Positions 1 to 13,630 of a DNA stretch of 64,000 nt are shown here, piece after piece; the stretch's first letter is position 1, and each line of letters begins with the position of its first letter. The notes beneath the pieces were generated by a model that had not been told where the DNA came from, searched no databases, and saw only the letters and a list, made by a program, of their open reading frames with translations. The position numbers and the translations under genes are program-made. The stretch is from Thermodesulfovibrionia bacterium. Lineage in GTDB: Bacteria > Nitrospirota > Thermodesulfovibrionia > JACRGW01. Where the stretch lies: contig CAKKSD010000008.1 in the NCBI GenBank assembly GCA_919902995.1, positions 10,922 through 74,921 of the forward strand. The letters are read 5' to 3'.

Positions 1-510
1 TCCCCTGAAGATGATAATCCTGTTATTGGAACGGTTTTTTACTACATAAAATTCCTTCAGGTTGCTCAGGAAATTATCAAAGACATCGGACTTCTTATAC
101 CCAATGATAACCTTCCAGGCGGAATGCGTCTCTGACGCTAATTCATAATAATAAAAGATAATCTCTTTTTCTGTCTCAGGGCATATAAAATATATTCCTG
201 ATGATAATCTTTTTTCTTCATCATCTGCTATTATGCGTACAGGTAGTTCATCCTGTGAATTAATCCCTATACCCTTTTTAGTAAATTGTATTTCCCCCGA
301 CAAAAGATAATCTTCAAGATATGTAAAAAGTTCTTCATCCTTACTCTCTGCAATAAAATGAAAATCCGATGGATTTCTCTTAAACTTATTTTTAAGAATA
401 ATGATAAATCTTTCGAATACCTCTTCTTTGACTAAAAATGACATTGGTTTTCCACCTCTTTCATATATAGGTCTTAATAATAACTCTCTCATTCTTTTTA
501 CCTCATCCAT
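1..510 (-). CDS. hypothetical protein, 3' end truncated by window edge
   Basis: Minus-strand ORF with ATG at 508-510 (MDEVKRMRELLLRPIYERGG...) that stays open to position 1. No family recognised. Confidence 0.35.
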   Translation of the reverse strand, partial: MDEVKRMRELLLRPIYERGGKPMSFLVKEEVFERFIIILKNKFKRNPSDFHFIAESKDEELFTYLEDYLLSGEIQFTKKGIGINSQDELPVRIIADDEEKRLSSGIYFICPETEKEIIFYYYELASETHSAWKVIIGYKKSDVFDNFLSNLKEFYVVKNRSNNRIIIFRG

Positions 511-877
511 TCTTTTTCATCAAATATTTTAACATGAGGTTATGACAGCAGGGTGTCAGTGGGGATTAAATAATAAAACCATAGGAAATCATCCAGTCCT
601 TGACAAAATCATTCATATCATTCATGTTCATATAATTGGCATGATGAAGAATATCAGCGATTAAGGAGTGTATAAGGGTACATAAGAATCAAGGATCCTG
701 CGGACAGGACACTCCTCTTTTTAAAGGGGATTCTTCAGGGTCTCCCCTCTATCAAGAGGGGATTAAGGGGTGTGTCTATAAGGGTATCCTGATTTTAGAA
801 GTGCAAAATTCCTTGTACCTTATTTTATGCGGAGGGAATCTAAGAGATTAGATTATTTTGGATAGTAATGAAATGCA

Positions 878-1117
878 TTATTTCAAGATATTTTCTATTT
901 CTTCATCGGTAAATCCAAATTGCCTGAAAATTCTGAGGACATATGCAGGCGAAAGCTCTTTTTCTCCCATATCTATAGGCACAACCCTCTTTTTACCCTA
1001 AAGATATCTCATATACAAACGATGGTCTCCTTTCCCTTCCCTATAAAAACTGCAATCTCCATTTTCTAAAATACGAATCAGCTCTTTTGGCTTAAGAGAA
1101 AGAATATTTTTAGGCAT
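878..1117 (-). pseudogene. hicA: HicA-family mRNA interferase toxin with in-frame amber stop
   Basis: Minus-strand translation MPKNILSLKPKELIRILENGDCSFYREGKGDHRLYMRYL*GKKRVVPIDMGEKELSPAYVLRIFRQFGFTDEEIENILK matches the HicA/YcfA pattern (KxxELIxxLExxG...GSHRxY...VPxH). TAG falls at plus-strand 998-1000. Confidence 0.55.
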
Positions 1118-1378
1118 GCACTGCCCTTAACTCATAGGTTTCCTTTGTGGGTTCTTTTTCTTCTACCGCTAAGAATTCATGAAGTTCTTTTATTGATATG
1201 GGAGCGCTATAAATATCACCTTCAGCTACATAAACATTTTCAATAGATTCAATTGCCTCTTTAAGTTTGTCTATAGCATCTTCCTTTGAAGCTCCCTAGC
1301 CTACCAATCCATTTTCCAAACATAAAGCTACCCAGTAAGTTCTACTTTTTCTTAACACAACAGTATAAAATTCCATCT
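1110..1378 (-). pseudogene. hicB: HicB-family antitoxin with in-frame amber stop
   Basis: Minus-strand translation MEFYTVVLRKSRTYWVALCLENGLVG*GASKEDAIDKLKEAIESIENVYVAEGDIY... matches the HicB N-terminal fold. TAG falls at plus 1298-1300. Its stop overlaps the hicA ATG, and an SD aggaggtag precedes the start. Confidence 0.5.
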
Positions 1379-1612
1379 CTACCTCCTATGCCTTCAAATA
1401 ACCTTCTTAAAAGAGAAACTGTAATATTACTATAATTTATAGCAATATTGAATTATAGATTAATATATGAGGATTGTAAAGATGTATTATGTAAGATGAT
1501 CCAATATCTTTATCGTATTCCTCTCAATATCTTTAAGCAGTCTGCAAAAACGACATGAAATGGGTCAAGTGGCTCGGTGATATCTAAATCTTAACAAATG
1601 GCTCTCCAAACA

Positions 1613-2128
1613 TCATGATTGGTTCTTTGCATCCGAGAGAACCTTTAGCCTCTTATGCATTATTATTTCTATGATTTCCTCGATTGCAGTTCGATCCTTG
1701 AGATCGAAATGGGAGACTTTCTTATTTATAATTTTTGGTACAGGCAGGTCTTTATTATTATCAACAATAAGGCATGGTGTATCGTCATCGGTCTCCCTGC
1801 AGAAACGGATATATTCATACCAGTAATTTTCACCCACGAGGTTTCTATCAATAACAGAGATGAAAAATGGAAGGGCGATTATATCCGGTGATGAAGGCTC
1901 ACCCCAGCAGACCTCGCAATTCAACCTCGTGGCTAATTCCCCAATCCTTGTTTCAAGATCCTTGTTTTCGAACATGCAGAAGATCGTCTTCATCCATGCC
2001 TTTTCCTTAAATTCACCGACTTCCATCCTATTTTCCCCTTCTCTAAAAGCAAGAAAAGATCCAGGATTGATTCCCATCGAAACCCCAGCCCCAATAAATC
2101 CCCTTAAAAAATCCCTCCTTTTAAGCAT
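1613..2128 (-). CDS. Tat-signal (RRDFLRG) exported protein of unknown function
   Basis: ORF track gives 171 aa. The N-terminal twin-arginine motif MLKRRDFLRGFIGAG is seen directly. The conserved island promoter/operator lies upstream at 2176-2193. Confidence 0.5.
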   Translation of the reverse strand: MLKRRDFLRGFIGAGVSMGINPGSFLAFREGENRMEVGEFKEKAWMKTIFCMFENKDLETRIGELATRLNCEVCWGEPSSPDIIALPFFISVIDRNLVGENYWYEYIRFCRETDDDTPCLIVDNNKDLPVPKIINKKVSHFDLKDRTAIEEIIEIIMHKRLKVLSDAKNQS

Positions 2129-2175
2129 AGCCCCTCCTTTTTATAAGATTTATAATTCATATTTATCATATTCCC

Positions 2176-2193
2176 CTGACAGCATTATGGCAG
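2176..2193. promoter_or_regulatory. 18-bp inverted-repeat operator-like motif CTGACAGCATTATGGCAG (copy A)
   Basis: Near-palindrome CTGACA-N6-TGNCAG. The flanking promoter region of about 75 bp is conserved with copy D. It lies upstream of minus-strand gene 1613..2128. Confidence 0.5.
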
Positions 2194-2290
2194 TATAAAG
2201 AATAATTTTCCGATAAAATATTTTTTATGGATGAATGCCAAGATAACTGGTTATTAGCTGCCTCAGATTAAAAAGAAAGACCTGACTCTC
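2176..2290. repeat. ~110-nt intergenic repeat family, copy 1 (starts with the operator motif)
   Basis: Shares ...gataactggtNattagctgNNNNagaNtaaaaagNaagNcc... with 3751-3850 and 4681-4790. Confidence 0.5.
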
Positions 2291-2456
2291 TTTGCCCTAG
2301 GAAGTCGAGGATTTTCAGATATAAGACTGGGGAATGAAGTTTGATGAGTAATACAGTAATAATCTCAGAGAAATAGGTTTTCGTACAAAAACTGCTTGAC
2401 AACAAACAAGAATCGTTGTACTTTGTAGTTATATAACTACAAAAATGGAGGATTAG

Positions 2457-2741
2457 ATGATAAAGGTAGGATTAAGAGAAGTAAACATCCATTTTTCAAA
2501 ATACATGAAAATGGTTAAAAAGGGCAGTGAGATTGTTTTGACTGATAGAGGATCACCTATCGCAGTTATTAAGCCTCTTGCTCAGAAGGAGGGTTCTCCT
2601 GAAGATAGAATCAAACTTCTGGAGGAGCAGGGTATTCTTCAAAAGGCAGTTAAGGTTAAGATTCCTATGCACAGGTTAATTAGTATTTCTGGAAAACCTG
2701 TTTCTAAGATTGTTATTGAAGGAAGGGAAAACAGGATTTAA
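2457..2741 (+). CDS. Phd/YefM-family type II antitoxin
   Basis: 94-aa ORF MIKVGLREVNIHFSKYMKMVKKGSEIVLTDRGSPIAVIKPL shows the typical Phd/YefM N-terminus. Stop overlaps the start of the downstream PIN gene (ATGA). Confidence 0.6.
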   Translation: MIKVGLREVNIHFSKYMKMVKKGSEIVLTDRGSPIAVIKPLAQKEGSPEDRIKLLEEQGILQKAVKVKIPMHRLISISGKPVSKIVIEGRENRI

Positions 2742-3178
2742 TGAAAGTCCCGTGGGGTTACTTCGATACCAGCACATATATAAAGCTCTATATCAAAGAG
2801 AATGGTTCTGAAGAGGCAAGAGAATCGGCAAGAAAAAATCGTATTCTTTCATCAGCTATACTACCAATAGAATGCTTTTCTGCTCTTTCATTGAAAAGGG
2901 ATATGGGTGATATTGTTAACGGTGAAATTGTAAAGCTGGCAACTATTATAAGAGAAGGCTTATCTTATGTTGAGCTTGTCAGGGTAACAGATGAGGTCTT
3001 AAAGAAGGCAGAGGAAATCTCTCTACTTGCTTCGGCAAGAGCCCTGGATGCCATTCACATAGCTTCGGCTTTGATCTTCAATGAGGCAACTGGGATAGAA
3101 TCTACTTTTATTACATCGGACAGTAAACAACTAAAGGTTGCTAATCATTTTGGCATGAAGACTTTATTTATCGGTTGA
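2741..3178 (+). CDS. vapC: PIN-domain ribonuclease toxin (VapC-like)
   Basis: 145 aa. YFDTS acidic motif near the N-terminus, further conserved Asp residues, and translational coupling to the antitoxin. Confidence 0.6.
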   Translation: MKVPWGYFDTSTYIKLYIKENGSEEARESARKNRILSSAILPIECFSALSLKRDMGDIVNGEIVKLATIIREGLSYVELVRVTDEVLKKAEEISLLASARALDAIHIASALIFNEATGIESTFITSDSKQLKVANHFGMKTLFIG

Positions 3179-3253
3179 TTATTTAAAAATAAATGCGGAT
3201 AAAAGTAGTAATAATTTAACAGGACATAGTCCAATTACCTTAGTGAAAATGTT

Positions 3254-3691
3254 TTAAAGTTGTCTGAGCCACGATCTCAATTCCTCAATATATTTCTCGG
3301 GTAGCCCCTGTTTTTCTGCGGCAGAAATAATCCTTTCCATATAACCATCCCAGGGAGAACCGATATCAGAATCTCCGGCAATATAGATTAATACTGAGGA
3401 TAACTTTCCATCCTGGGCCTCTATATCAACATAATCTTTCCTGTATGTCCCCCATCTAACGCCTTCATAAACATCCAGCGATTCCTCATCCCTTTTTGAA
3501 ATATTCCAGAGGATACCATAGACCACACCCGATGTATCTGGAACAACTGTGGCAACTCCATGTGTGTTAATAATAAATCGGTAACCCCGAAGGGTTGCCA
3601 TACTAACAGAAACTGCATCAGGACACCTTTCCCTTATCTGTCTATTGTCCATGTTCGAACCATATGCAAAATAGTACCTCTTACCAGACAT
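3254..3691 (-). CDS. gamma-glutamyl cyclotransferase (GGCT/AIG2-like) family protein
   Basis: YFAYGSNM motif at the predicted N-terminus (MSGKRYYFAYGSNMD...). The track ORF extends further upstream, but the internal ATG at 3689-3691 fits the family. Operator copy B lies upstream. Confidence 0.55.
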   Translation of the reverse strand: MSGKRYYFAYGSNMDNRQIRERCPDAVSVSMATLRGYRFIINTHGVATVVPDTSGVVYGILWNISKRDEESLDVYEGVRWGTYRKDYVDIEAQDGKLSSVLIYIAGDSDIGSPWDGYMERIISAAEKQGLPEKYIEELRSWLRQL

Positions 3692-3750
3692 GTTTATTCT
3701 CCACTCTACAATTATTTGCAAAACATTTAGTTCAACATTAACATATCCCC

Positions 3751-3768
3751 CTGCCAGCATTATGTCAG
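3751..3768. promoter_or_regulatory. operator-like inverted repeat CTGCCAGCATTATGTCAG (copy B)
   Basis: Same motif as copies A, D, E and F. Upstream of the GGCT-like gene and divergent from brnTA. Confidence 0.5.
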
Positions 3769-3850
3769 TTTGAAATGGATATTTCTGATTTACGAATGGA
3801 TACTGCCGGGATAACTGGTGATTAGCTGTATTGGACTAAAAAGCAAGGCC
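3751..3850. repeat. ~110-nt intergenic repeat family, copy 2
   Basis: High identity to 4681-4790 (ttacgaatggatactgccggg[a/c]taactggtgattagctgt...). Confidence 0.55.
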
Positions 3851-3993
3851 TAACCATAGCCCCTTGCCCTTGTCTCTGGAAGGATCTGCGAAGGGTTTTC
3901 CACATTGATATTGCCTTCTCATTAAAATAAAAGTATAATTGAATACGACTTTGTTTTAAGAAGGAAACAAAAAGTTTGCCATAGTATGTTTAA

Positions 3994-4302
3994 TACAAAG
4001 GGAGCATTCAACTGCCAATCATAATTGATGATATAATATGGCTGGATACAATAGTTGAAAAGATTGCATGGAAACATGGTGTGCTTCGGCACGAGGTAGA
4101 AGAAGTATTAACAGGCAATTGCAGGATATTCAAAAGAGAAAGCGGCAATATTGAAGGAGAAAATCTGTACAATGCCCTTGGCAGGGCTGAAAGCGGCAGG
4201 TATCTTTCAGTATTTTTTATCAGAAAGCTTAATAACAAGGCCCTAATTATAACTGCAAGAGATATGAACAAAAGGGAGAGGATAAGATATGAAAAAAAGT
4301 AG
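3994..4302 (+). CDS. brnT: BrnT-family ribonuclease toxin (DUF497); start codon unclear
   Basis: Open frame from 3994 encodes ...IAWKHGVLRHEVEEVLTGNCRIFKRESGNIEGENLYNALGRAESGRYLSVFFIRKLNNKALIITARDMNKRERIRYEKK, matching the BrnT core (KHGV...ITARxxxxxERxxYE). There is no in-frame ATG upstream of the conserved N-terminus. The track uses GTG at 4081. Confidence 0.5.
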   Translation, partial: YKGSIQLPIIIDDIIWLDTIVEKIAWKHGVLRHEVEEVLTGNCRIFKRESGNIEGENLYNALGRAESGRYLSVFFIRKLNNKALIITARDMNKRERIRYEKK

Positions 4303-4528
4303 GCGCAGAGAGATGACAATAACAGAGGCGAGCGACTATTTTGACGAGCACGATATTTTTGAGTTTAAAGATGTAAAAGAGGTCGCAGACATTAAATTCA
4401 GGCTGCAGAAAAAGAAATATGTGGGGCTTGATATGGAGCTTTTTAAGAAAATCAGAAGCAAGGCGAAAAAGCTCCATAAGAGCGAAGATATTCTTATTAA
4501 AGAATGGCTGATGGAGAAGGTAGGATAA
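4289..4528 (+). CDS. brnA: BrnA-family antitoxin
   Basis: 79 aa, overlaps the brnT 3' end. MTITEASDYFDEHDIFEF... is typical of BrnA (ribbon-helix-helix-like). Confidence 0.5.
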   Translation: MKKSRRREMTITEASDYFDEHDIFEFKDVKEVADIKFRLQKKKYVGLDMELFKKIRSKAKKLHKSEDILIKEWLMEKVG

Positions 4529-4680
4529 AAAACCTTATTTCCCCTGGAGCTAACCTTATCATTGGTGTAGGCTGGCCCCGCTGCTTTCCAATCCTGTTCC
4601 AATCTTTGTTAAGTCCTATAAAAAGAACACATGGATCCCTTCAATATATGAAATCAGGACAAAGGGAAGGGAATTAAAAA

Positions 4681-4790
4681 CTGCATTATGTCGGTTTGAA
4701 AATGGAGGGTTTAGATTTACGAATGGATACTGCCGGGCTAACTGGTGATTAGCTGTCTTAGACTAAAAAGCAAGACTTGACACTCCCAGC
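4681..4790. repeat. ~110-nt intergenic repeat family, copy 3 (carries only a half operator GCATTATGTCGG)
   Basis: Sequence identity with 3751-3850. Lies between brnA and the 3' end of the 68-aa gene. Confidence 0.5.
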
Positions 4791-4812
4791 TCTCGGTACT
4801 AATAATTATTGT

Positions 4813-5019
4813 CTAATTCAAAATGTATTTATTAAATTCTTCTATTGAATAATTGCCGCATTTATTGCTTCTCGCTTTAAAACAAGTTATTTCTCCTTTA
4901 TCAAAGAAGAATATATCATCGAAATCTGATTCCAAATTTTTATTTGGTTTTTTTAATGAGGATAGACTTTTATTATCACCATCAAAATCGCCTGCATTTA
5001 AGATTAATATTCTTTTCAT
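4813..5019 (-). CDS. small hypothetical protein (68 aa)
   Basis: The ORF is preceded by the same conserved promoter/operator region as gene 1613..2128 (copy D), which supports it being a real gene. Confidence 0.35.
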   Translation of the reverse strand: MKRILILNAGDFDGDNKSLSSLKKPNKNLESDFDDIFFFDKGEITCFKARSNKCGNYSIEEFNKYILN

Positions 5020-5185
5020 TTCAACCTCCTCTTTTATTGTTGTAAACAGCAGAGCCTAATAGCGAAAAGCATCAGGTCTTGAATTGTGAATCAAGCTGCC
5101 TCCTTTTTCAAATGCTAAGATCTGACGCCTCTTTTCTATTCCCTCCCTCTTTTAAAATTTATAACCCATATTTATCATATCTGCC

Positions 5186-5203
5186 CTGACAGCATTATGA
5201 CAG
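5186..5203. promoter_or_regulatory. operator-like inverted repeat CTGACAGCATTATGACAG (copy D)
   Basis: Perfect CTGACAG/CTGTCAG-type palindrome arms. The flank catatttatcatat is shared with copy A. Confidence 0.5.
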
Positions 5204-5360
5204 AGGAAATAATAATTTATTACGACAGGATTCTATTGGAAATAAGGGTGTAATGGATGATATATCTTTTAAAGAGGTTTTTCTCTGAATTGAAAAGACT
5301 GGCGGCAAAGGTTACCAGCACTAACTTTCTTATATTTAAATGCCTTACCATATGCTTCCT

Positions 5361-6674
5361 CTACTTAATGAATTTAATTGGCGTTTCTAAGATGCCTAAG
5401 CCTTCTCTGATTCTCTCCTTGATATCATCGATAAGATTATCCATTGAATCAAGTGCTTTTGCTTTTTCTGCAGGATACTCGTAGCTAAGACCTAATCCCG
5501 GGCAAACATTTATTCTATCCCGATTTGTTTTAAAGATCTGTGTGTCCAGTTCATCGTTCTTAAGAATTATTAGTTTTAATCTATCAAGTTCAGAAAGAAG
5601 TGTTCTAATTTCTTCTTTCCCATACTGATCAATTCTATTAACATTTTCTTTCCAGAAAGAATAGTAATCTTGCATAGATCCTTCAGGTGTTTTAAGCCAA
5701 ACAAGACCTAGTCGAATATGACTAAGATGAAAATTGGGGTCGCATTTCCATCCTTCATTGATAAGATGTTCAATTTTAGAATAATCTATTTTTCTATTGT
5801 AGAAAGACTTTGCTTGGCTTGATGTATCGCCAAAATACAGGCTTAACCAAAGACCTTTGAGTTTATCTTGATCAAAACCAATTTCAATTCCCACTTTTGC
5901 AATATCAGGCAGATCTGATTTGATATAATATGTCCAGCCCTTGTGATAATCCACTAAAGCTTCTTCCGTAGATACGCTCATAAGAATATTTTTTACTCTT
6001 TTTTCTATAAGTTCCCGATTGTTTTTGCAAAGGGTTAAATTATCATAAGGATTTAAGGAGGGAAAGTTTCTATTTATAAAGTCAAGAAAGTCTGAAATAA
6101 TTAACCCTTCTGCGCCTCCTACAGCATCTATCAAAAGTATTTCATTAAGCTTTTTGATTATTTCTTTCCATTCCAGTATGGCTGGGACTTTGACAAGTTG
6201 TGGTGTCGTATCCATATGTTCTTTATGTTCATCGATCCATTTCGACAGATTTGGATTAAGTTGTTCTTTCCACACATTTTCAGATTTAGGCTTGTTTTCA
6301 ATAATTAGAGTTAATTCATCTGAAAAAGATATAATGCCGTCGTATATCGCCCCACGATTAGAATTCTTTATATCGCTACTTATTTCTATTCTTTCATCAG
6401 TGATAAGAACGGATACAAATTGTCGAGCATTCTCTAAATTGCCAGTCTGTGTCCAAAACCTAATATTGGATCCCTTTATTTGAGATGTTTCTGGTATCTC
6501 TACAGAAATATATTCATTTCTCGCTAATCCTAACAAGCTGCTCCTCATGTAATCATAAAAAATAAATAACGCTAAAGGAGAATACCGCAGGACTATCAGA
6601 AAGGCTCGAGTTAATTGGTCTTCATGCCTGGCAATCTTCGAGATATAAGGTTCAAAATAGTTCAAGTAACTCAT
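5361..6674 (-). CDS. hypothetical protein with PD-(D/E)xK-like motif (putative nuclease)
   Basis: 437 aa. The segment ITDERIEISSD...GAIYDGIISFSDELTLIIENKPKS resembles D...(D/E)xK nuclease cores. Flanked by 14-bp direct repeats at 5371-5384 and 6748-6761. Confidence 0.4.
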   Translation of the reverse strand: MSYLNYFEPYISKIARHEDQLTRAFLIVLRYSPLALFIFYDYMRSSLLGLARNEYISVEIPETSQIKGSNIRFWTQTGNLENARQFVSVLITDERIEISSDIKNSNRGAIYDGIISFSDELTLIIENKPKSENVWKEQLNPNLSKWIDEHKEHMDTTPQLVKVPAILEWKEIIKKLNEILLIDAVGGAEGLIISDFLDFINRNFPSLNPYDNLTLCKNNRELIEKRVKNILMSVSTEEALVDYHKGWTYYIKSDLPDIAKVGIEIGFDQDKLKGLWLSLYFGDTSSQAKSFYNRKIDYSKIEHLINEGWKCDPNFHLSHIRLGLVWLKTPEGSMQDYYSFWKENVNRIDQYGKEEIRTLLSELDRLKLIILKNDELDTQIFKTNRDRINVCPGLGLSYEYPAEKAKALDSMDNLIDDIKERIREGLGILETPIKFIK

Positions 6675-6935
6675 GTTTACTCCCTTACCATAAGATTATG
6701 TTTATTAAGTTTCTCAACAAGACAAAGTGATGCTTCTCTATTCAAGTAATTTAATTGGCGTCAAGTCTTCTAATATCGTTTTTCATCTGCCGATTCTTCT
6801 TGATTGTTTTGCTTACTAATATTTTTAGATTTTAAATAATCTGTATTCTCTTTCAAATTATAGCCGAAAAGACTTGTGGATTCAAGTTTTGAGTAGTTTC
6901 AAGGCTATTATAAGACTCGACCTTTTTTAGATTTT

Positions 6936-7175
6936 TTAACCTTTCTCTATCTGTCTTGCCTTATTCCTAACTACCTCCAACGCCTTCTCTATATCCTCGG
7001 CATTTTCTTCTATGTAACTCAAGAAGGCGTTTTCTTCATCGCTTATAGGTTTATTTTCAAGCCTCTCATTAATCTTATTCCGTATGTCATAGGTATTTTC
7101 TTCAATTACATCGAGAAATATCTCTATTTCCTGAAATATATTTCTTGAATCGTTTTTCCTCAAGGTATCTGCCAT
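6936..7175 (-). CDS. small acidic hypothetical protein (79 aa), last gene of the nuclease operon
   Basis: ORF sits 5 nt downstream of the 346-aa gene on the same strand. Confidence 0.35.
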   Translation of the reverse strand: MADTLRKNDSRNIFQEIEIFLDVIEENTYDIRNKINERLENKPISDEENAFLSYIEENAEDIEKALEVVRNKARQIEKG

Positions 7176-7180
7176 ATTTT

Positions 7181-8221
7181 TTATTCCAGCACCTTTTTAA
7201 GCTCTTCAAGAAGGGTATTGGATTCTTCTTTGCTGAGGTAAGGAACCTTTATGGTTCTGTCCCAGAAAAATGATTTCCCTAATATTGATGATACATGGCT
7301 GAAAGGCAAGTACTTTTTGATGCCTTCAATCCTGCTGGGTATAGGTGCAAGAAATCTTACATCGCGGTATTTTTCTTCGTTAGCGTCATTATTCTTTGAT
7401 TGACCAATAACCTCTGCAGCAGCAATAATGCCGATCCATTTATGTGAATAAAATACTTTATCTTTGGGATGCAGATAATCCACATAATATCTGGCGTCTC
7501 CATAGGCAGAAACACGCTTATTCTCCAGCATATTCCAGATGGCATTTTCATCGTAACTTCGGTTTGTATCGAAAAGAACCCCTTTTATATCTCCAGGATT
7601 TCTATGTTTATCATAGGGTAAAGAGAAGAACTCGAAGTAATATTGGCCGGAAATACTGTAAACCCTATAAGGGATAAAATCCATTGAGATTCCCTGATGT
7701 TTCCAGTAATCAATAGCCTCAATCAGTTTTTCATCAGCTGCACTGCCAACAATCCATATATGCTGTTTCTGATTGAACTCATTGGGTAGTAGTTCTCTTT
7801 CGAGTTGAAAGGCTTCCAGATGGGCTTTCTGGAGTTCCTGACCGGTACTCTTCGAATATAACTTGAACTTTTCATTGAGTTCATTAAATGTCCATTGTCC
7901 AGCCTCCTGAGTATAACGAAGAGCCTGCTCAACAGCATTTCCACCAGCCTTAGATAGTTTAAGTTCAAAGATTATCAGATCACCTTTTTTGTTCAATGCA
8001 TATATATCCGCCACAGGTTGACCCCCTCTTTCTCTAAATATCGGCATTAATGGAACCTCTTCAAAAAGGATGTTAAATAAATTGTCTGTCAGTAATTTCT
8101 CTAAGTCCTCTTCTTTTTTCTGAAATACAGAAAAATCATAGAAAGGGATTGCATCTAATGCCTGTGGCAGCCCTTTTTCGATCGCAAACTTATAAAGCAT
8201 TTTAGCTTCCTCCTTCTTCAT
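7181..8221 (-). CDS. hypothetical protein with N-terminal PD-(D/E)xK-like motif
   Basis: 346 aa. PVADIYALNKKGDLIIFELKLSKAGGNAVEQALRY resembles a restriction-endonuclease-like core (D..D/E-L-K). Overlaps the upstream Cas4-like gene. Confidence 0.45.
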   Translation of the reverse strand: MKKEEAKMLYKFAIEKGLPQALDAIPFYDFSVFQKKEEDLEKLLTDNLFNILFEEVPLMPIFRERGGQPVADIYALNKKGDLIIFELKLSKAGGNAVEQALRYTQEAGQWTFNELNEKFKLYSKSTGQELQKAHLEAFQLERELLPNEFNQKQHIWIVGSAADEKLIEAIDYWKHQGISMDFIPYRVYSISGQYYFEFFSLPYDKHRNPGDIKGVLFDTNRSYDENAIWNMLENKRVSAYGDARYYVDYLHPKDKVFYSHKWIGIIAAAEVIGQSKNNDANEEKYRDVRFLAPIPSRIEGIKKYLPFSHVSSILGKSFFWDRTIKVPYLSKEESNTLLEELKKVLE

Positions 8222-9398
8222 TTAAAGTTCGTATATATATCTTTATCTCCTTATCACGTCGGGAAAAGTTAATGACCTTCATAATGATGTCTTTGTCCCA
8301 TGCTGATTCTGATAATATTTTCTCTAACTTATCTGTGCTTAAATTCGAGACTTCCTCCCATTTCCCTGCCTTCTTTATCAGTTCTTCAAGTTCAGCCCTT
8401 TCAGGTTCGCTTTTTGATGGAAACTTTAATGCATCCTTTTCGCTTATCTTCAGGATACAATCACTGCCCCTCAGTTGTGTTAAGCCTTCTTTATGGGCAT
8501 AGGAGATTATCTTCTCCCTCAGAACTTCAAGCTCATCACTAAATAATTTAACTTGTGCCTTTAATTCAACATAACGGTTTGCAAGGCTTACCCCATCGTC
8601 TTTAAGAAACTCTTCTGCTGGCAGGGTTTCCGTCTTTACGATATGTTTCTGGAATGGGCAGTATTCAGGAAAATCGCAGTATTCACATAGACTATTTTCT
8701 TTTGGCTTGAATTCAGTATCTGTCTTTATGGTCTCAATAAGTTCGACTGTCTTCTCCTCTGTTTCCTCAAGTTCTTCCTCTGTCTTCTCAATAGTGAATT
8801 CTTTATCAAATCTAAGATAGTGCCAGATGAGTTTTACCTTTTCGGCATCACGGTAATTCTGTTTGAGCCCTATCTGGTAGAGTGCAAGCTGTCTGTCGTT
8901 CTCGAGCCACTCATCGTGTGGCAGGTTTCTGGAGGTCTTGTAGTCATGAATCTCGTATATCTCACCATTACTAATATCAAGCCTGTCTATATACCCCCTG
9001 AAATTATATTTATCTTTGAGTTTAAAGGATAAATGTTTTTCTGTTGCAATAGTTCTTATATTGGTAAATGGCTGATAGCGTTTATAATAGTCCCTGATTA
9101 ACCTTTCACCTGTGTCATAGTAGTTCTCTTCAGAAATACCTTCTTTTCTGATAAGTATGTTCTGGTTCCAGTTCTTCGTCCACTCGGATTTATAGAAACT
9201 GAGGAGGTCATCAAGAGGATTTAATTTTGAAAGGATTAGGTCTTCATGGAGTTTTGCGAGGGTCTCATGAACCCTGATTCCAAGAAAAGCCTCTACACCT
9301 TCTATTTCCTCTACATCAACCTTATCTATATACTTAAGCTTGAACTTAAGGGGACAGGTTTCATAAGTAGAAATCATGCTATTTGAATATACTGGCAT
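8202..9398 (-). CDS. PD-(D/E)xK nuclease superfamily protein, RecB/Cas4-like with C-terminal Cys cluster
   Basis: N-terminal YETCPLKFKLKYI (RecB-family motif I), GYIDRLDISNGEIYEIHDYKTS (D..E.K core) and CEYCDFPEYCP (Cas4/AddB-type Fe-S Cys cluster). 398 aa with an extra C-terminal domain. Confidence 0.6.
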   Translation of the reverse strand: MPVYSNSMISTYETCPLKFKLKYIDKVDVEEIEGVEAFLGIRVHETLAKLHEDLILSKLNPLDDLLSFYKSEWTKNWNQNILIRKEGISEENYYDTGERLIRDYYKRYQPFTNIRTIATEKHLSFKLKDKYNFRGYIDRLDISNGEIYEIHDYKTSRNLPHDEWLENDRQLALYQIGLKQNYRDAEKVKLIWHYLRFDKEFTIEKTEEELEETEEKTVELIETIKTDTEFKPKENSLCEYCDFPEYCPFQKHIVKTETLPAEEFLKDDGVSLANRYVELKAQVKLFSDELEVLREKIISYAHKEGLTQLRGSDCILKISEKDALKFPSKSEPERAELEELIKKAGKWEEVSNLSTDKLEKILSESAWDKDIIMKVINFSRRDKEIKIYIRTLNEEGGS

Positions 9399-9450
9399 AT
9401 TATTTAGCCTCCTATATGTTTAAGTCTTGTTAGATTATATATAACTCTTA

Positions 9451-9467
9451 TGACAGCAGTATGTCAG
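9451..9467. promoter_or_regulatory. operator-like inverted repeat TGACAGCAGTATGTCAG (copy E) upstream of the nuclease operon
   Basis: Same motif family. 53 nt upstream of the start of the Cas4-like gene. Confidence 0.5.
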
Positions 9468-9518
9468 AAATAAATAGCCTGCTGAAAAAGTCTCCTTTTA
9501 TTATAGAGTCGTCTTGTT

Positions 9519-9588
9519 TGTCATTCCGCACTTGATGCGGAATCCAGTCTTTTGTTTATTTCTGGATTCCTGTTTCCACGGGAATGAC
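9519..9588. repeat. hairpin-rich intergenic element (gtcattccgcacttgatgcggaatcc ... ggattcc...gggaatgac)
   Basis: Nested inverted repeats. The track's spurious ORF 9514..9717 translates it (VIPHLMRNP). Positioned as a likely terminator downstream of the WYL gene. Confidence 0.4.
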
Positions 9589-9623
9589 TACTTTTTTAAA
9601 GAAATGCGAGTTGTTAAACAAGC

Positions 9624-10604
9624 TCAGTGTCCCTTTAATGCATCACCGAGTTCCCTTTTAACCTGTTTCCTGAGCCATTGGGGCTTAATTACTTCAACAT
9701 CTGGAATCCATGAATAGATCCATCTCTTGATTTCATCCACACCGGCAACAGTGAATGAGAGTTCCACATCCCCTGAAGGAAGGATATTCCTTTTTTCTGA
9801 GGGATGCCACTTTTCTCTCCTTGTGATATACTCGGCTACCTTCTTGGAAAACCTCAGGGTGACATCAACTGCATCATCCTCGTATATCCCCCAGCTCTGA
9901 GAGAGATGATCTTCAATATCAAATTCGCCACGAAAATAATGCCACCTCTCTTTTATGTCTTTAATCCTGTCAATATCAAAATGCCTTAACCTGTTCCTTA
10001 AATGACAGTACCCTATCAGAGTCCATGTCCCCTGATAGAATACCAGTCCGTAAGGGTCTACTTCCCTCTTTGTGACCTCTTTGCTATGGAGGGCTTTATA
10101 GATAATTTCGATCGAGCGTTTCTCTTTAATACAGTCTGAGATAATATTAAAATAGTTATTTAATCTCTCGGTCATGATAGCGTCAGGGATCTTTACGACA
10201 ATAGGAACCCTTGAGGGGAATTTGGTTATATTCGTCATATTAGTTATTAACCTCTTGAAATCTTCCTCAAAGGGCTTACCGAGATGTGAGACCGCCTCAC
10301 CCATTGTGAGGAGCAGCAGAAGTTCTCTATCAGAGAGGGCTGTTTTCTTTATGCGGTCAGTATTCACAAATCTATACCCCTTTCTCTCCTTGTCAAACTC
10401 TATAGTATCTATCATATTTATTATCTCAAGATACCTGTAAACAGTCCTTTCCTTTACTTCGAATTCCTCAGAAAGATATCCTACTGATGGGTATTTGTTC
10501 TGTGCAATCAGGGTGTAGGCTTTAAGGATATTGATAACCTTCTCTGATATGCCAGCAGGTTTGGATTTCTTATGTTTAAGGTTTTTAAAGGGAGGCTTTT
10601 TCAT
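9624..10604 (-). CDS. WYL-domain transcriptional regulator (BrxR/CapW-like, HTH + WYL)
   Basis: 326 aa. N-terminal wHTH (YLSEEFEVKERTVYRYLEII), central WYL-type segment (DPYGLVFYQGTWTLIGYCHLRNRLRHFDIDRI) and a C-terminal domain. Operator copy F lies upstream. Confidence 0.65.
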   Translation of the reverse strand: MKKPPFKNLKHKKSKPAGISEKVINILKAYTLIAQNKYPSVGYLSEEFEVKERTVYRYLEIINMIDTIEFDKERKGYRFVNTDRIKKTALSDRELLLLLTMGEAVSHLGKPFEEDFKRLITNMTNITKFPSRVPIVVKIPDAIMTERLNNYFNIISDCIKEKRSIEIIYKALHSKEVTKREVDPYGLVFYQGTWTLIGYCHLRNRLRHFDIDRIKDIKERWHYFRGEFDIEDHLSQSWGIYEDDAVDVTLRFSKKVAEYITRREKWHPSEKRNILPSGDVELSFTVAGVDEIKRWIYSWIPDVEVIKPQWLRKQVKRELGDALKGH

Positions 10605-10703
10605 GTTTTATCTTATCTGATTATTACCCTGTATTCCACTCCGAATAATTACCTTATTGACATAATGAAAAGGGCTTTAATATTTTAATTATAGCATATT
10701 TAA

Positions 10704-10721
10704 CTGACAGCACTATGACAG
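10704..10721. promoter_or_regulatory. operator-like inverted repeat CTGACAGCACTATGACAG (copy F) upstream of the WYL regulator gene
   Basis: Palindromic arms CTGACAG/CTGTCAG, about 85 nt upstream of the regulator start. Consistent with an autoregulatory site. Confidence 0.5.
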
Positions 10722-10793
10722 TTAAAATCCCCGTGCTTATTTTATAGGGAAAACGATTGCAATTAAACCTCTGAACCTATTATAATTATAACA

Positions 10794-11366
10794 ATGAAGC
10801 TTGTGTCGATCACAGGGGCACACAGCGGTGTGGGGAAGACCTCTCTCGCTGCTCTTATTTTAAGAGAAATCAAGGGCTTCTCCGCCATAAAGGTTACAAG
10901 GACAGAACTCTTTACCTCTATAACTATGGATGAAGAAATCATCTCTGAAAAAGGGAAAGATTCCTGTATCCTTAAAGAAAGCGGTGCCGATAAGGTTATA
11001 TGGGTAAAAGCAACCTATGATGATCTTAAAGAATGCCTTACACAGGCCCTATCAATGATAGGGAATACAGGTGGTGTGATAATTGAAGGTAACAGTCCTC
11101 TGGACTTTATAGATCCAGACCTTGTGATATTTATAATAAAAGATAATCTGACAGAGCTAAAACCGAGCGGAAGAAAGGCACTCGAAAGGGCAGATCTCGT
11201 AGTAATAAATACACAATTGGATGACCTCGAAATATTGAAGAAGGAAATCAAAGGTATAAATCCTTTAGTAGATGTATTTTTGAGTGATCTGTCAAAAGGT
11301 GAGATAGAGAAAGGATTTTTCGATATGGTAAAGAAAAAAATGGTGATGGAGCTTTCCTGTGGATAA
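10794..11366 (+). CDS. mobB: molybdopterin-guanine dinucleotide biosynthesis adapter MobB-like P-loop NTPase
   Basis: Walker A GAHSGVGKTSL. GKDSCILKESGA and IIEGNSPLD align with the MobB motifs GKDSYELRKAGA and LVEGFKHE. Confidence 0.5.
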   Translation: MKLVSITGAHSGVGKTSLAALILREIKGFSAIKVTRTELFTSITMDEEIISEKGKDSCILKESGADKVIWVKATYDDLKECLTQALSMIGNTGGVIIEGNSPLDFIDPDLVIFIIKDNLTELKPSGRKALERADLVVINTQLDDLEILKKEIKGINPLVDVFLSDLSKGEIEKGFFDMVKKKMVMELSCG

Positions 11367-11529
11367 GGCACTGATTGAGGCGATAAGGGTCGCCTCACCT
11401 GACAATCAGATTTCCTGTACAAAGGCAAGAGAGCTATCGGAGAGATTTGGTATTCCCCTGTCAGAGATAGGAAGATTGGCTAACGAACTCAAGATTAAGA
11501 TCGTTGCCTGTGAACTTGGGTGCTTCTGA
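11359..11529 (+). CDS. small ORF (56 aa, GTG start) bridging mobB and ccsA
   Basis: VDKALIEAIRVASPDNQISCTKARELSERFGIPLSEIGRLANELKIKIVACELGCF. Overlaps both neighbours and is not in the track (<60 aa). Confidence 0.2.
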   Translation: MDKALIEAIRVASPDNQISCTKARELSERFGIPLSEIGRLANELKIKIVACELGCF

Positions 11530-12344
11530 TGGATATCACCTTTTACTGGATAACCCTAAGTTTATATTTTATTTCAACATCCCTTTCTATAGTCTACATT
11601 TTCAGACGGCAAGGAATACTTTTCAAGGGTTCTCTCGCCTTTACAGCATTCGGTTTTTTTACACATACCCTAAGTATTCTAATAAGATTCTATGAGTCTT
11701 CCCATCTCCCAATAACGAACTTCTCTGAAGCAACATCTTTCTTCAGCTGGTGTATCGTACTGCTCTTCTTCTTTCTCGAATATAGATACAGGATAGGCCT
11801 TCTGGGTTCCTTTATACTCCCCTTTGTGGTCGTACTTCTTCTCTCTTCTTCCGCCCTTCCCTCCGAGATAAAACCCCTGAACCCTCTACTACGGAGTTAC
11901 TGGCTTGGAATACATACAGTTTTTGTCTTTCTCGGTAATGCAGCCTTTGCACTTGCCTCAGGTGTCGGGATTATGTATCTGATACAGGAAAAATATGTGA
12001 AGTCCAGACACCCCGGTGGTCTCTTCGAAAGGCTACCGAGCCTGCAGATCCTCGATGAGGTAAATTACAGACTTATAACCTTAGGATTTCCATTCCTGAC
12101 CCTCGCAATAATCTCGGGTGCATTATGGGCAGAGAAGACCTGGGGAAGTTACTGGAGGTGGGACCCGAAAGAAGTCTGGTCACTAATCACATGGTTTTTA
12201 TACGCCCTTGTATTTCATGTAAGATTTGTCTCCGGTTGGAGGGGAAAGAAGGCGGCGATACTTTCTATTATCGGTTTTGCCTCTGTTCTTTTCACATTCT
12301 TAGGGATCAGGTTCCTTATTAAAGGCATCCATATATTTGAATGA
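11520..12344 (+). CDS. ccsA: cytochrome c assembly protein CcsA-like (hemA-associated)
   Basis: Polytopic membrane protein with the WGSYWRWDPKEVWSL motif (WGxxWxWDxxE) typical of CcsA/ResC. Lies directly upstream of hemA. Confidence 0.7.
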   Translation: MLLMDITFYWITLSLYFISTSLSIVYIFRRQGILFKGSLAFTAFGFFTHTLSILIRFYESSHLPITNFSEATSFFSWCIVLLFFFLEYRYRIGLLGSFILPFVVVLLLSSSALPSEIKPLNPLLRSYWLGIHTVFVFLGNAAFALASGVGIMYLIQEKYVKSRHPGGLFERLPSLQILDEVNYRLITLGFPFLTLAIISGALWAEKTWGSYWRWDPKEVWSLITWFLYALVFHVRFVSGWRGKKAAILSIIGFASVLFTFLGIRFLIKGIHIFE

Positions 12345-13630
12345 GCATTATAGTAGTTGGTCTTAATCACAGAACTGCCGATATCGAGATGAGGGAGAGG
12401 TTTGCCTTCCCCAGAGAGAAGCTTGCAGAAGGTCTGAAAGAATTACTCTCAATCGAAGAGATAAGGGAGGGTATTATCCTTTCAACCTGTAACAGGGTTG
12501 AAGTCTATTGTGTTATCTTTGATCCTGCTGATGGTGAAAGGGAGATAAAGACCTTCCTCTCAGACTTCCACAATGTCCCCCTCGAAAAACTGGAATTAAT
12601 TCTATACACATATAAGAAGGAGGACGCAGTAAGGCATGTCTTCAGGGTTGCATCAAGCCTGGATTCGATGGTCTTAGGAGAACCGCAGATACTCGGCCAG
12701 ATTAAAGACGCATACAGTAAGTCACTTGTACTGAATACAACAGGTGTAATTCTAAACCGTCTTATTAAGAAGGCGATCTCTGTTGCAAAGAAGGTGAGGA
12801 CAGAGACGAGGATTGGAGAGAATGCAGTTTCTATAAGTTATGTTGCGGTAGAACTCGCAAAAAAAATCTTTGAGGATATACATGTAAGGACATCTATGCT
12901 CCTCGGAGCAGGGGATATGGCTGAACTCGCTGCAAGACATCTCTTGAAAAGTGGAGTAAAGGGTATAACAGTGGCTAACAGAACCTATGGGCGGGCTGTT
13001 GAGCTTGCAGCGGAACTCAAAGGAACAGCTGTAAAGTGGGAGGATTTCCTTAAAGAGATGCTTTATACGGATATAGTGATCTGTTCTACAGGTGCCTCAG
13101 GATATGTCTTTACAGATGAACAGGCAAGGAGATTGATGAAGGAGAGGAGACACAAACCGATCTTCATCATAGATATATCCGTTCCCAGGAATATAGACCC
13201 TGCTGTAAATGAAATCGACAATATATATCTCTATAATATCGATGACCTTCAGGATATCGTAGATTCAAATATTCTCGAGAGAAGAAAAGAGGCAGAGGCT
13301 GCAGAAGGAATTGTGGGTAAAGCGGTGGAGAGTTTCCTCGCCTGGGAGAAGTCCCTCGAAGCTGTACCAACGATAGTGGAAATCAAGGAAAGGATGGAAG
13401 TTATAAGAAAGGAAGAACTCGAAAAGATAATGAACAAACTTAACGGAATGAGTGAGAGGGAAATAAAGATAGTAGAGGCACTTACGGCTTCTATAGTGAA
13501 TAAGATCCTCCATCCTTCTCTATCAGTCCTCAAGGAAGAGATAGACCCTGAGAACAGGGCTACCTACATATATCTCGCAAGGAGGCTTTTCGGTCTCGAC
13601 AGGGAAGAGGGTATTGGAGAGGATAATTAA
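12341..13630 (+). CDS. hemA: glutamyl-tRNA reductase
   Basis: LSTCNRVEVY active-site motif, NADP-binding GAGDMAELAARHL, 429 aa. Confidence 0.9.
   Translation: MSIIVVGLNHRTADIEMRERFAFPREKLAEGLKELLSIEEIREGIILSTCNRVEVYCVIFDPADGEREIKTFLSDFHNVPLEKLELILYTYKKEDAVRHVFRVASSLDSMVLGEPQILGQIKDAYSKSLVLNTTGVILNRLIKKAISVAKKVRTETRIGENAVSISYVAVELAKKIFEDIHVRTSMLLGAGDMAELAARHLLKSGVKGITVANRTYGRAVELAAELKGTAVKWEDFLKEMLYTDIVICSTGASGYVFTDEQARRLMKERRHKPIFIIDISVPRNIDPAVNEIDNIYLYNIDDLQDIVDSNILERRKEAEAAEGIVGKAVESFLAWEKSLEAVPTIVEIKERMEVIRKEELEKIMNKLNGMSEREIKIVEALTASIVNKILHPSLSVLKEEIDPENRATYIYLARRLFGLDREEGIGEDN

Follow-up and report, generated by a model that had tools for sequence, protein, structure and literature searches.

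A candidate ssDNA-responsive WYL regulon with a composite nuclease operon on a low-GC variable island of a Nitrospirota genome

In a 64-kb stretch of the genome of a Thermodesulfovibrionia bacterium (Nitrospirota; contig CAKKSD010000008.1), referred to below as the window, we analysed an island region covering about the first 10.7 kb, where a gene for an HTH-WYL-WCX transcription factor is followed on the minus strand by three genes, here called P2, P3 and P4. The population is present in the Hainich groundwater samples. The locus lies on a variable island, low in GC and about 11 kb long, with the regulator at one end, and we consider it probable (about 0.6) that it constitutes a local regulon, responsive to single-stranded DNA (ssDNA) through the WYL protein, whose first operon is composite. 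The original prediction had taken the regulator and the trio behind it for one new defence module. The locus is not a new three-gene defence system, it is a regulated island of unrelated genes: P2, P3 and P4 were found together only in this species-level population, and their operon, thought to be a self-contained unit, is one of six transcription units bearing the same promoter box.

A common box at six promoters of a low-GC variable island

The four open reading frames (ORFs) are real and lie at 10604..9624 (WYL), 9398..8202 (P2), 8221..7181 (P3) and 7175..6936 (P4). For P3, an alignment with 25 homologs and most gene callers on the same-strain contigs placed the true start at M8, position 8200, giving a protein of 339 amino acids (aa) instead of the 346 aa read from 8221. 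The GC content is 34-39% across positions 1-10.7 kb and 42-45% in the adjacent hemA/hemC genes, and the locus therefore sits in an island. That the region is low in GC, variable and furnished with toxin-antitoxin (TA) modules had been predicted and holds; its claimed richness in TA modules stood only in part, namely for Phd/PIN, for BrnT with its partner and for one more PIN.

At three mismatches or fewer, the window contains the 17-bp box CTGNCATANTGCTGTCA in six copies, including four exact ones, where 1.27 copies were expected and none of 100 shuffles reached six. All six are minus-strand copies between 543 and 10721; the remaining 53 kb have none. The core embedded in the box, TGnCA-N6-TGnCA, is dyad-symmetric, which suits a dimeric winged helix-turn-helix (wHTH) protein. 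In the consensus of 18 sites drawn from the window and related loci, the box is followed by 11 nt and then by TGnTAtAaT, an extended -10, with no recognisable -35; at the six promoters the box covers approximately positions -40 to -24.

Box 1 (CTGTCATAGTGCTGTCA, 10705..10721) is located upstream of the WYL gene itself and is followed, after 11 nt, by TATAAT at 10693..10688, while box 2 (CTGACATACTGCTGTCA, 9451..9467) provides the promoter of the P2-P3-P4 operon, with the same spacing to TATAAT at 9439..9434. The exact box 3 (5187..5203) precedes a 68-aa ORF (5019..4813), and box 4 (3752..3768, one mismatch) a GGACT/AIG2-family gene with a likely start at about 3688 and its end at 3254. Box 5 (2177..2193), also exact, lies upstream of a 171-aa protein (2128..1613) whose N-terminus is twin-arginine-signal-like. 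Behind box 6 (543..559, two mismatches) is a gene that begins at 444 and is cut off by the window edge; in contig L170 of the same strain (11308-12591) it encodes a 427-aa AAA (PF00004) ATPase.

The same arrangement recurs in related loci. Boxes were found at the same placement upstream of the WYL genes of L007, L008, L092 (three mismatches) and L011 (four mismatches); in L008 a box identical to box 2 also precedes the P2 ortholog, and in L009 a box stands ahead of an operon with a P2 homolog as its last gene. Other copies are on an integrative element or mobile defence island (L111/L180), ahead of an operon encoding a DUF6745 protein, a 101-aa protein and a P3 homolog, and ahead of an SbcCD-like pair. 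A search of 19 kb of this element found no WYL gene. On a tentative reading, mobile elements may borrow the WYL damage and phage sensor of their host. Almost all the box-controlled cargo genes of the related loci are without a known Pfam family.

The box might instead be a strong promoter element peculiar to the lineage, or a small repeat spread by duplication, with the WYL protein regulating something else. Similarity between the sites at 2177-2193 and 5187-5203 continues for about 30 nt past the box (ggg.a.atatgataaatatg..ttataaat), which suggests that the whole promoter may have been duplicated inside the island, and the 5′ half of the box is like a -35 hexamer. Over the 18 sites, however, the upstream flanks are not conserved; the box recurs before WYL genes in five loci, even when it has diverged; and it is present, ahead of different genes, in L009, L092 and L111, which are unrelated contigs. 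Together with the dyad symmetry, this makes such a reading of the box improbable.

The WYL regulator resembles PafBC and DriD

The regulator (9624..10604, minus strand; 326 aa, isoelectric point 9.3) matched the Pfam families HTH_11 (1.4e-5; 25.3 bits for a cutoff of 25), WYL (4e-22) and WCX (4e-17) and the WYL models of PADLOC (5e-39). The WYL assignment thus survived profile searches, and a genuine HTH-WYL-WCX regulator stands at the head of the locus. The BrxR/CapW type given to it has to be revised: among proteins in the PDB the regulator is far nearer to PafBC (6e-13) and DriD (3e-12) than to CapW (9e-4) and BrxR (6e-3), and its promoters have the PafBC/DriD geometry. Over the 18 sites, the distance from the box to the -10 equals that in the PafBC motif tGTCgg(N10)tA(N3)T (PMC8635444), the TGTC-N12-TAnnnT spacing being identical, and it also agrees with the DriD promoters, which lack a -35 element and carry the site over that position, at a constant spacing from the -10 (PMC13004042). 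As for driD, the promoter of the regulator bears the site.

DriD in Caulobacter and PafBC in mycobacteria are ssDNA-activated WYL activators of LexA-independent damage responses. Eight of the 11 residues through which DriD contacts ssDNA are identical or conservatively replaced in the regulator (Y168, S172, R178, Y192 as W, K202 as R, R204, W206 as F, and Y240), and these residues lead us to predict that the WYL domain has ssDNA as its ligand. Since ssDNA is a ligand common to DriD, PafBC and CapW, DNA damage or phage replication is predicted to act as inducer under either sign of regulation. As to the sign, activation as in DriD and PafBC seems to us somewhat the more likely, with release of a repressor, as in CapW and BrxR, a serious but lesser candidate.

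The mechanism that we propose would thus begin with ssDNA arising from DNA damage or phage replication and sensed by the WYL domain. A homodimer of the HTH-WYL-WCX protein would bind the dyad box TGnCA-N6-TGnCA at the six promoters with an extended -10 (TGnTAnAAT), its own among them, and would, if the slightly favoured activation applies, switch on these neighbouring promoters.

The likeness to DriD and PafBC has its limits. The host is a member of the Nitrospirota, and the visible regulon is clustered on one variable island, its genes being nucleases and unknowns rather than recA, recJ or dnaG. The regulator is a single polypeptide, as DriD is, and not a PafB/PafC heterodimer, and activation is here a prediction. 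With BrxR and CapW it shares the wHTH-WYL-WCX architecture, a place at the 5′ end of an island operon containing nucleases and a palindromic operator near the promoter, as well as, in the case of CapW, the sensing of ssDNA; it differs from them in the weak sequence similarity, in promoters without a -35 and in a box repeated at six promoters. Moreover, PADLOC recognised neither BREX (bacteriophage exclusion), nor CBASS (cyclic-oligonucleotide-based antiphage signalling system), nor any other multi-gene system downstream: P2 was reported only as a generic Cas4 and P3 as PDC-S11, and P4 and P5 (a further ORF of the island) were without match.

The first operon is composite

The layout of the operon invites the interpretation that WYL, P2, P3 and P4 are one new multi-gene anti-phage system whose BrxR/CapW-type repressor would lift at infection. 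All the genes share a strand and are closely spaced: P3, read from 8200, starts 1 nt past the P2 stop, with an AGGAGG inside the 3′ end of P2, and P4 starts 5 nt past the P3 stop. A single box promoter stands before P2, the island contains TA modules, P3 matches a model of defence candidates, and ssDNA-sensing WYL repressors are known for CBASS and BREX (PMC11662680). The distribution of the genes does not agree with this interpretation. Neighbourhood clustering identified no P3 or P4 homolog in 85 P2-homolog loci; conversely, no P2 homolog was found in 81 P3-homolog loci, and no P4 homolog in the 65 of them with downstream sequence. A conserved P2-P3-P4 trio was accordingly rejected. Considering also that the same box drives five other units and that the regulator is much closer to PafBC and DriD than to CapW and BrxR, we regard a single system as improbable.

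A direct comparison is offered by L008, from a related population in the same metagenome as the same-strain contig, where the regulator (E = 6.5e-152) and P2 (75% identity) occupy the same chromosomal site. Downstream of P2, L008 has five unrelated small genes and then the same GGACT gene, which shows that the cargo behind P2 is variable.

The P2-P3-P4 operon would then be a composite of a conserved partner of the regulator (P2), a later-acquired gene (P3) and an orphan (P4), with P2 predicted to resect DNA ends and P3 to cut DNA with modified bases. P4 (6936..7175, minus strand; 79 aa, isoelectric point 4.5) is acidic and, on the sequence searches, appears to be a lineage-specific ORFan: no homolog was detected outside this species-level population, and P4 was rejected as a conserved partner, as it retrieved only itself among 5.8 billion proteins.

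P2, the predicted conserved partner of the regulator

P2 (8202..9398, minus strand; 398 aa) combines an iron-sulphur (Fe-S) nuclease of the Cas4/RecB family (residues 1-250) with a family-specific C-terminal domain (about 255-398). Residues 5-248 matched Pfam PDDEXK_1 (7e-32), and the protein carries the RecB motif set (D, D/E-x-K, QxxxY) as well as the four-cysteine Fe-S cluster; all of 24 aligned homologs share C15, C241, C247, D138, D152, K154, Q170 and Y174, and at least 90% have C238. The description of P2 as a Cas4/RecB-like nuclease with a cysteine cluster and an extra C-terminal domain is thus borne out, the domain being conserved and about 145 aa long, as is the assignment of both P2 and P3 to the PD-(D/E)xK nucleases. 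In a scan of 1.84 billion representatives the C-terminal domain was confined to the architecture of about 400 aa or to shorter, probably truncated ORFs. The fold of P2 matched the nuclease domain of AdnA/AdnB, ACE1, Cas4 and Dna2, and its TIGR00372 score was 44 bits for a cutoff of 65.

The RecB-type motifs, the Fe-S cluster and the AdnA/AdnB fold match are features that P2 shares with solo Cas4-like PF12705 nucleases (Hudaiberdiev et al. 2017) and with AdnAB/AddB, whereas it has its own C-terminal domain and no fused helicase. Neither is it, like CRISPR-associated Cas4, part of a cas1/cas2 adaptation module: no cas genes were seen in the neighbourhood in the window or among the recurrent neighbours of the 85 P2-homolog loci.

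Homology searches detected more than 3,000 full-length relatives of P2, each of about 400 aa, and at least 592 genome stretches of the GTDB collection (185,579 species) encode one. The family extends over Nitrospirota, Dehalococcoidia, Acidobacteriota, Methanoperedens and DPANN archaea. A phage origin was considered and rejected, as a collection of 2.9 million viral contigs gave only one or two relatives. Of the 78 loci in which 1.2 kb or more of sequence precedes the P2 homolog, 14 have a WYL gene there, in 13 cases on the strand of the homolog, and such WYL-P2 loci occur in Nitrospirota, Nitrospinota, Syntrophales, Acidobacteriota and Dehalococcoidia. The pair is retained in L007, beside the same hemA/ccsA genes, and in L008, before the same GGACT gene. 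In the literature that we searched, a recurrent pairing of a P2-type nuclease with a WYL regulator was not found.

On these grounds P2 is predicted to be the conserved partner of the regulator, an Fe-S exonuclease resecting DNA ends. A tentative extension, to which we give clearly less weight than to the local regulon itself, is that WYL and P2 form a two-gene module, triggered by ssDNA and conserved across several phyla, which anchors the variable island and wires newcomers into the same alarm. Newcomer genes (P3, the AAA ATPase, the GGACT-family gene and others) would join it in one of two ways, through insertion behind P2 or with a WYL box of their own.

P2 is not restricted to islands: its family is widespread and often in housekeeping synteny. 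In 12 Dehalococcoidia loci (L017, L018, L022, L023, L025, L028, L030, L034, L035, L038, L047 and L050) the gene upstream of the P2 homolog, usually immediately so, encodes a DEDD-like exonuclease of 168 aa with the motif DIETTG, which could represent a second conserved partnership of P2; short WYL-like ORF fragments are located farther upstream of the pair in L017, L025 and L033. In Methanoperedens the P2 homolog is flanked by proA/proB. Different company was observed in L001/L002, where a P2 homolog of 61% identity directly precedes an 898-aa SNF2-family helicase, and in L003-L005, where a cluster composed of ERCC4, the P2 homolog, a 436-aa protein, a PLD-like protein and SNF2 lies beside TraF/TraH/TraG conjugation genes. 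Both clusters could be uncharacterised nuclease-helicase modules.

P3, a predicted modification-dependent endonuclease

P3 (7181..8200, minus strand, with the alternative start at 8221) consists of a NucS-like PD-(D/E)xK nuclease core (about residues 35-200) and a C-terminal EVE/YTH-like domain of the PUA superfamily (about 213-330). D72, E86, L87 and K88 are invariant in the alignment with the 25 homologs. The similarity of the N-terminal half to NucS is weak (NucS_C, 19 bits for a cutoff of 24; PRK04247, 26.6 for a cutoff of 216) and covers the nuclease region only, the N-terminal DNA-binding and dimerisation family of NucS giving no match in profile searches. The rest of P3 has an EVE/YTH-like fold, and Pfam EVE was weakly detected in 2 of 13 C-terminal domains of P3 homologs.

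A nuclease fused to a reader-type domain is the make-up of type IV, modification-dependent restriction endonucleases, whose modular principle has been described (PMC12191111; PMC6765204). With its NucS-type core tethered to an EVE/YTH-like reader, P3 is, as far as its domains tell, predicted to belong to these enzymes and to cut DNA with modified bases. Like the MspJI/AspBHI, VcaM4I and PvuRts1I-type enzymes it joins a nuclease to a PUA-superfamily domain in a single gene, spreads horizontally and is found in restriction and defence neighbourhoods. In the characterised PUA fusions, by contrast, the reader is N-terminal and the nuclease mostly HNH (PMC6765204), while P3 has its NucS-like nuclease at the N-terminus, a domain order that is uncharacterised; from NucS/EndoMS it differs in that only the nuclease region is shared and the remainder is EVE/YTH-like.

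About 800 homologs of P3 were detected, 55-61% identical over the full length in hosts as distant as Armatimonadota, Aeromonas, Oceanisphaera, Meiothermus and DPANN. Such identity across distant phyla is the pattern expected of horizontal transfer, and the homologs stand on their own in varied surroundings. Methyltransferases, McrBC and DUF2779 are among the neighbours of P3 homologs in restriction and defence contexts, and in L006 the homolog stands directly behind McrB-McrC and a methyltransferase; no methyltransferase partner for P3 is present in the window. As the original prediction would lead one to expect, P3 matches a defence-candidate model in PADLOC (PDC-S11, best match 1.6e-18), residues 35-203 aligning to model positions 23-185 of 358. 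For PDC-S11 the literature yielded catalogue mentions only, and functional data were not found. We conclude that P3 is an independently mobile, single gene that was acquired horizontally and inserted directly behind P2. A phage origin was rejected for P3 as well, with two or three relatives in the 2.9 million viral contigs.

P3-type genes also occur in other organisms as BrxR-style pairs of a WYL gene and a single effector, with a divergent WYL regulator placed right against the P3 homolog: in L118 (1687-3761) the stop of the WYL gene overlaps the start of the P3 homolog, and in L124 (2042-4178) a WYL regulator and a P3 homolog are divergently transcribed. DUF2779-type proteins of about 490 aa, composed of a Cas4-like nuclease and an exonuclease, are encoded no more than a few kb from P3 homologs in three loci unrelated to one another, L092 (8979-10463), L118 (5663-7141) and L180 (1-377), and AAA ATPases of about 700 aa adjoin the WYL genes of the P3 loci L118 and L136.

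A repair or a defence role for the regulon

The same data can be read as a housekeeping, LexA-independent DNA-damage response without any role in defence, the WYL protein being the Nitrospirota counterpart of PafBC and DriD, P2 a repair nuclease for end resection and P3 one that, like NucS, would incise DNA where bases are damaged or mismatched. The promoter geometry and the regulator similarity match it, and so do the synteny of P2 with the DEDD-like exonuclease and with proA/proB, the SbcCD-like pair behind a box in L111 and the resemblance of the P3 core to NucS/EndoMS; solo Cas4 genes have, furthermore, been described as evolving like ordinary genes (PMC5704561). A general damage response is, however, hard to reconcile with six boxes that are all in the low-GC island, with the patchy distribution of P3 and its restriction-type neighbours, with a NucS match limited to the nuclease region, or with boxes in L111/L180 on an integrative element that carries defence genes. 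We therefore hold a purely housekeeping role to be unlikely, less so than a single anti-phage system or a mere promoter repeat.

Several observations weigh against the island regulon as we propose it. The 5′ half-site, CTGACA, is similar to a -35 hexamer, and TATGnT can be read as a -10; the promoters could accordingly be ordinary sigma-70 promoters with an overlaid operator, which would point to a repressor. A factor other than the WYL protein could bind the box, and three of the DriD contact residues (R176, R207 and R288) are not kept in the regulator. The regulon may reach beyond the island, as only 64 kb of the genome are visible. The PDC-S11 models align to the nuclease half of P3 only, and the contexts of P2 are mixed, housekeeping in Dehalococcoidia and Methanoperedens and defence- or mobile-element-like in L001 and L003, so that P2 may serve in repair or in defence.

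ssDNA-sensing WYL regulators have been described in Actinobacteria, Caulobacter and Acinetobacter as well as in the operons of CBASS and BREX, and the locus would extend this logic to Nitrospirota in the form of a compact regulon of six promoters with one clear common box. It also draws attention to two uncharacterised families, an Fe-S Cas4-like exonuclease of about 400 aa that repeatedly travels with a WYL regulator and a NucS-EVE fusion resembling an unstudied type IV restriction enzyme. The points of most interest are the recurrent WYL-P2 pairing and the box common to the island and to mobile-element cargo. As a caution, dense packing of an operon inside a defence island does not prove that its genes are one system.

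Other features of the island

The 225-bp spacer between the WYL gene and P2 contains a cluster of three interleaved hairpins (9523..9587), including TCATTCCCGTGGAAACAGGAATCCAG, which is the probable separator of the two transcription units; a similar element is present in the WYL-P2 spacer of L008. The hairpins may be a terminator, an insulator or a lineage-specific repeat. The element at 9562-9587 was rejected as a dispersed repeat, being single-copy in the window, and an Rfam search of positions 1-11500 gave no matches. Two TA pairs, Phd/PIN (2457-3178) and BrnT/BrnA-like (4081-4528), are on the plus strand, interleaved among the box-driven minus-strand units.

P5 (5361-6674, minus strand) encodes 437 aa without a family match and shows a PD-(D/E)xK-like 'D...IIENK' motif. 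It follows P4 at a distance of 260 bp; sigma-70-like promoter matches at 6885-6829 precede it, but no WYL box does. A frameshift splits it on contig L173 of the same strain, and in L168 a protein with a similar motif, VIENK, follows a P3 homolog.

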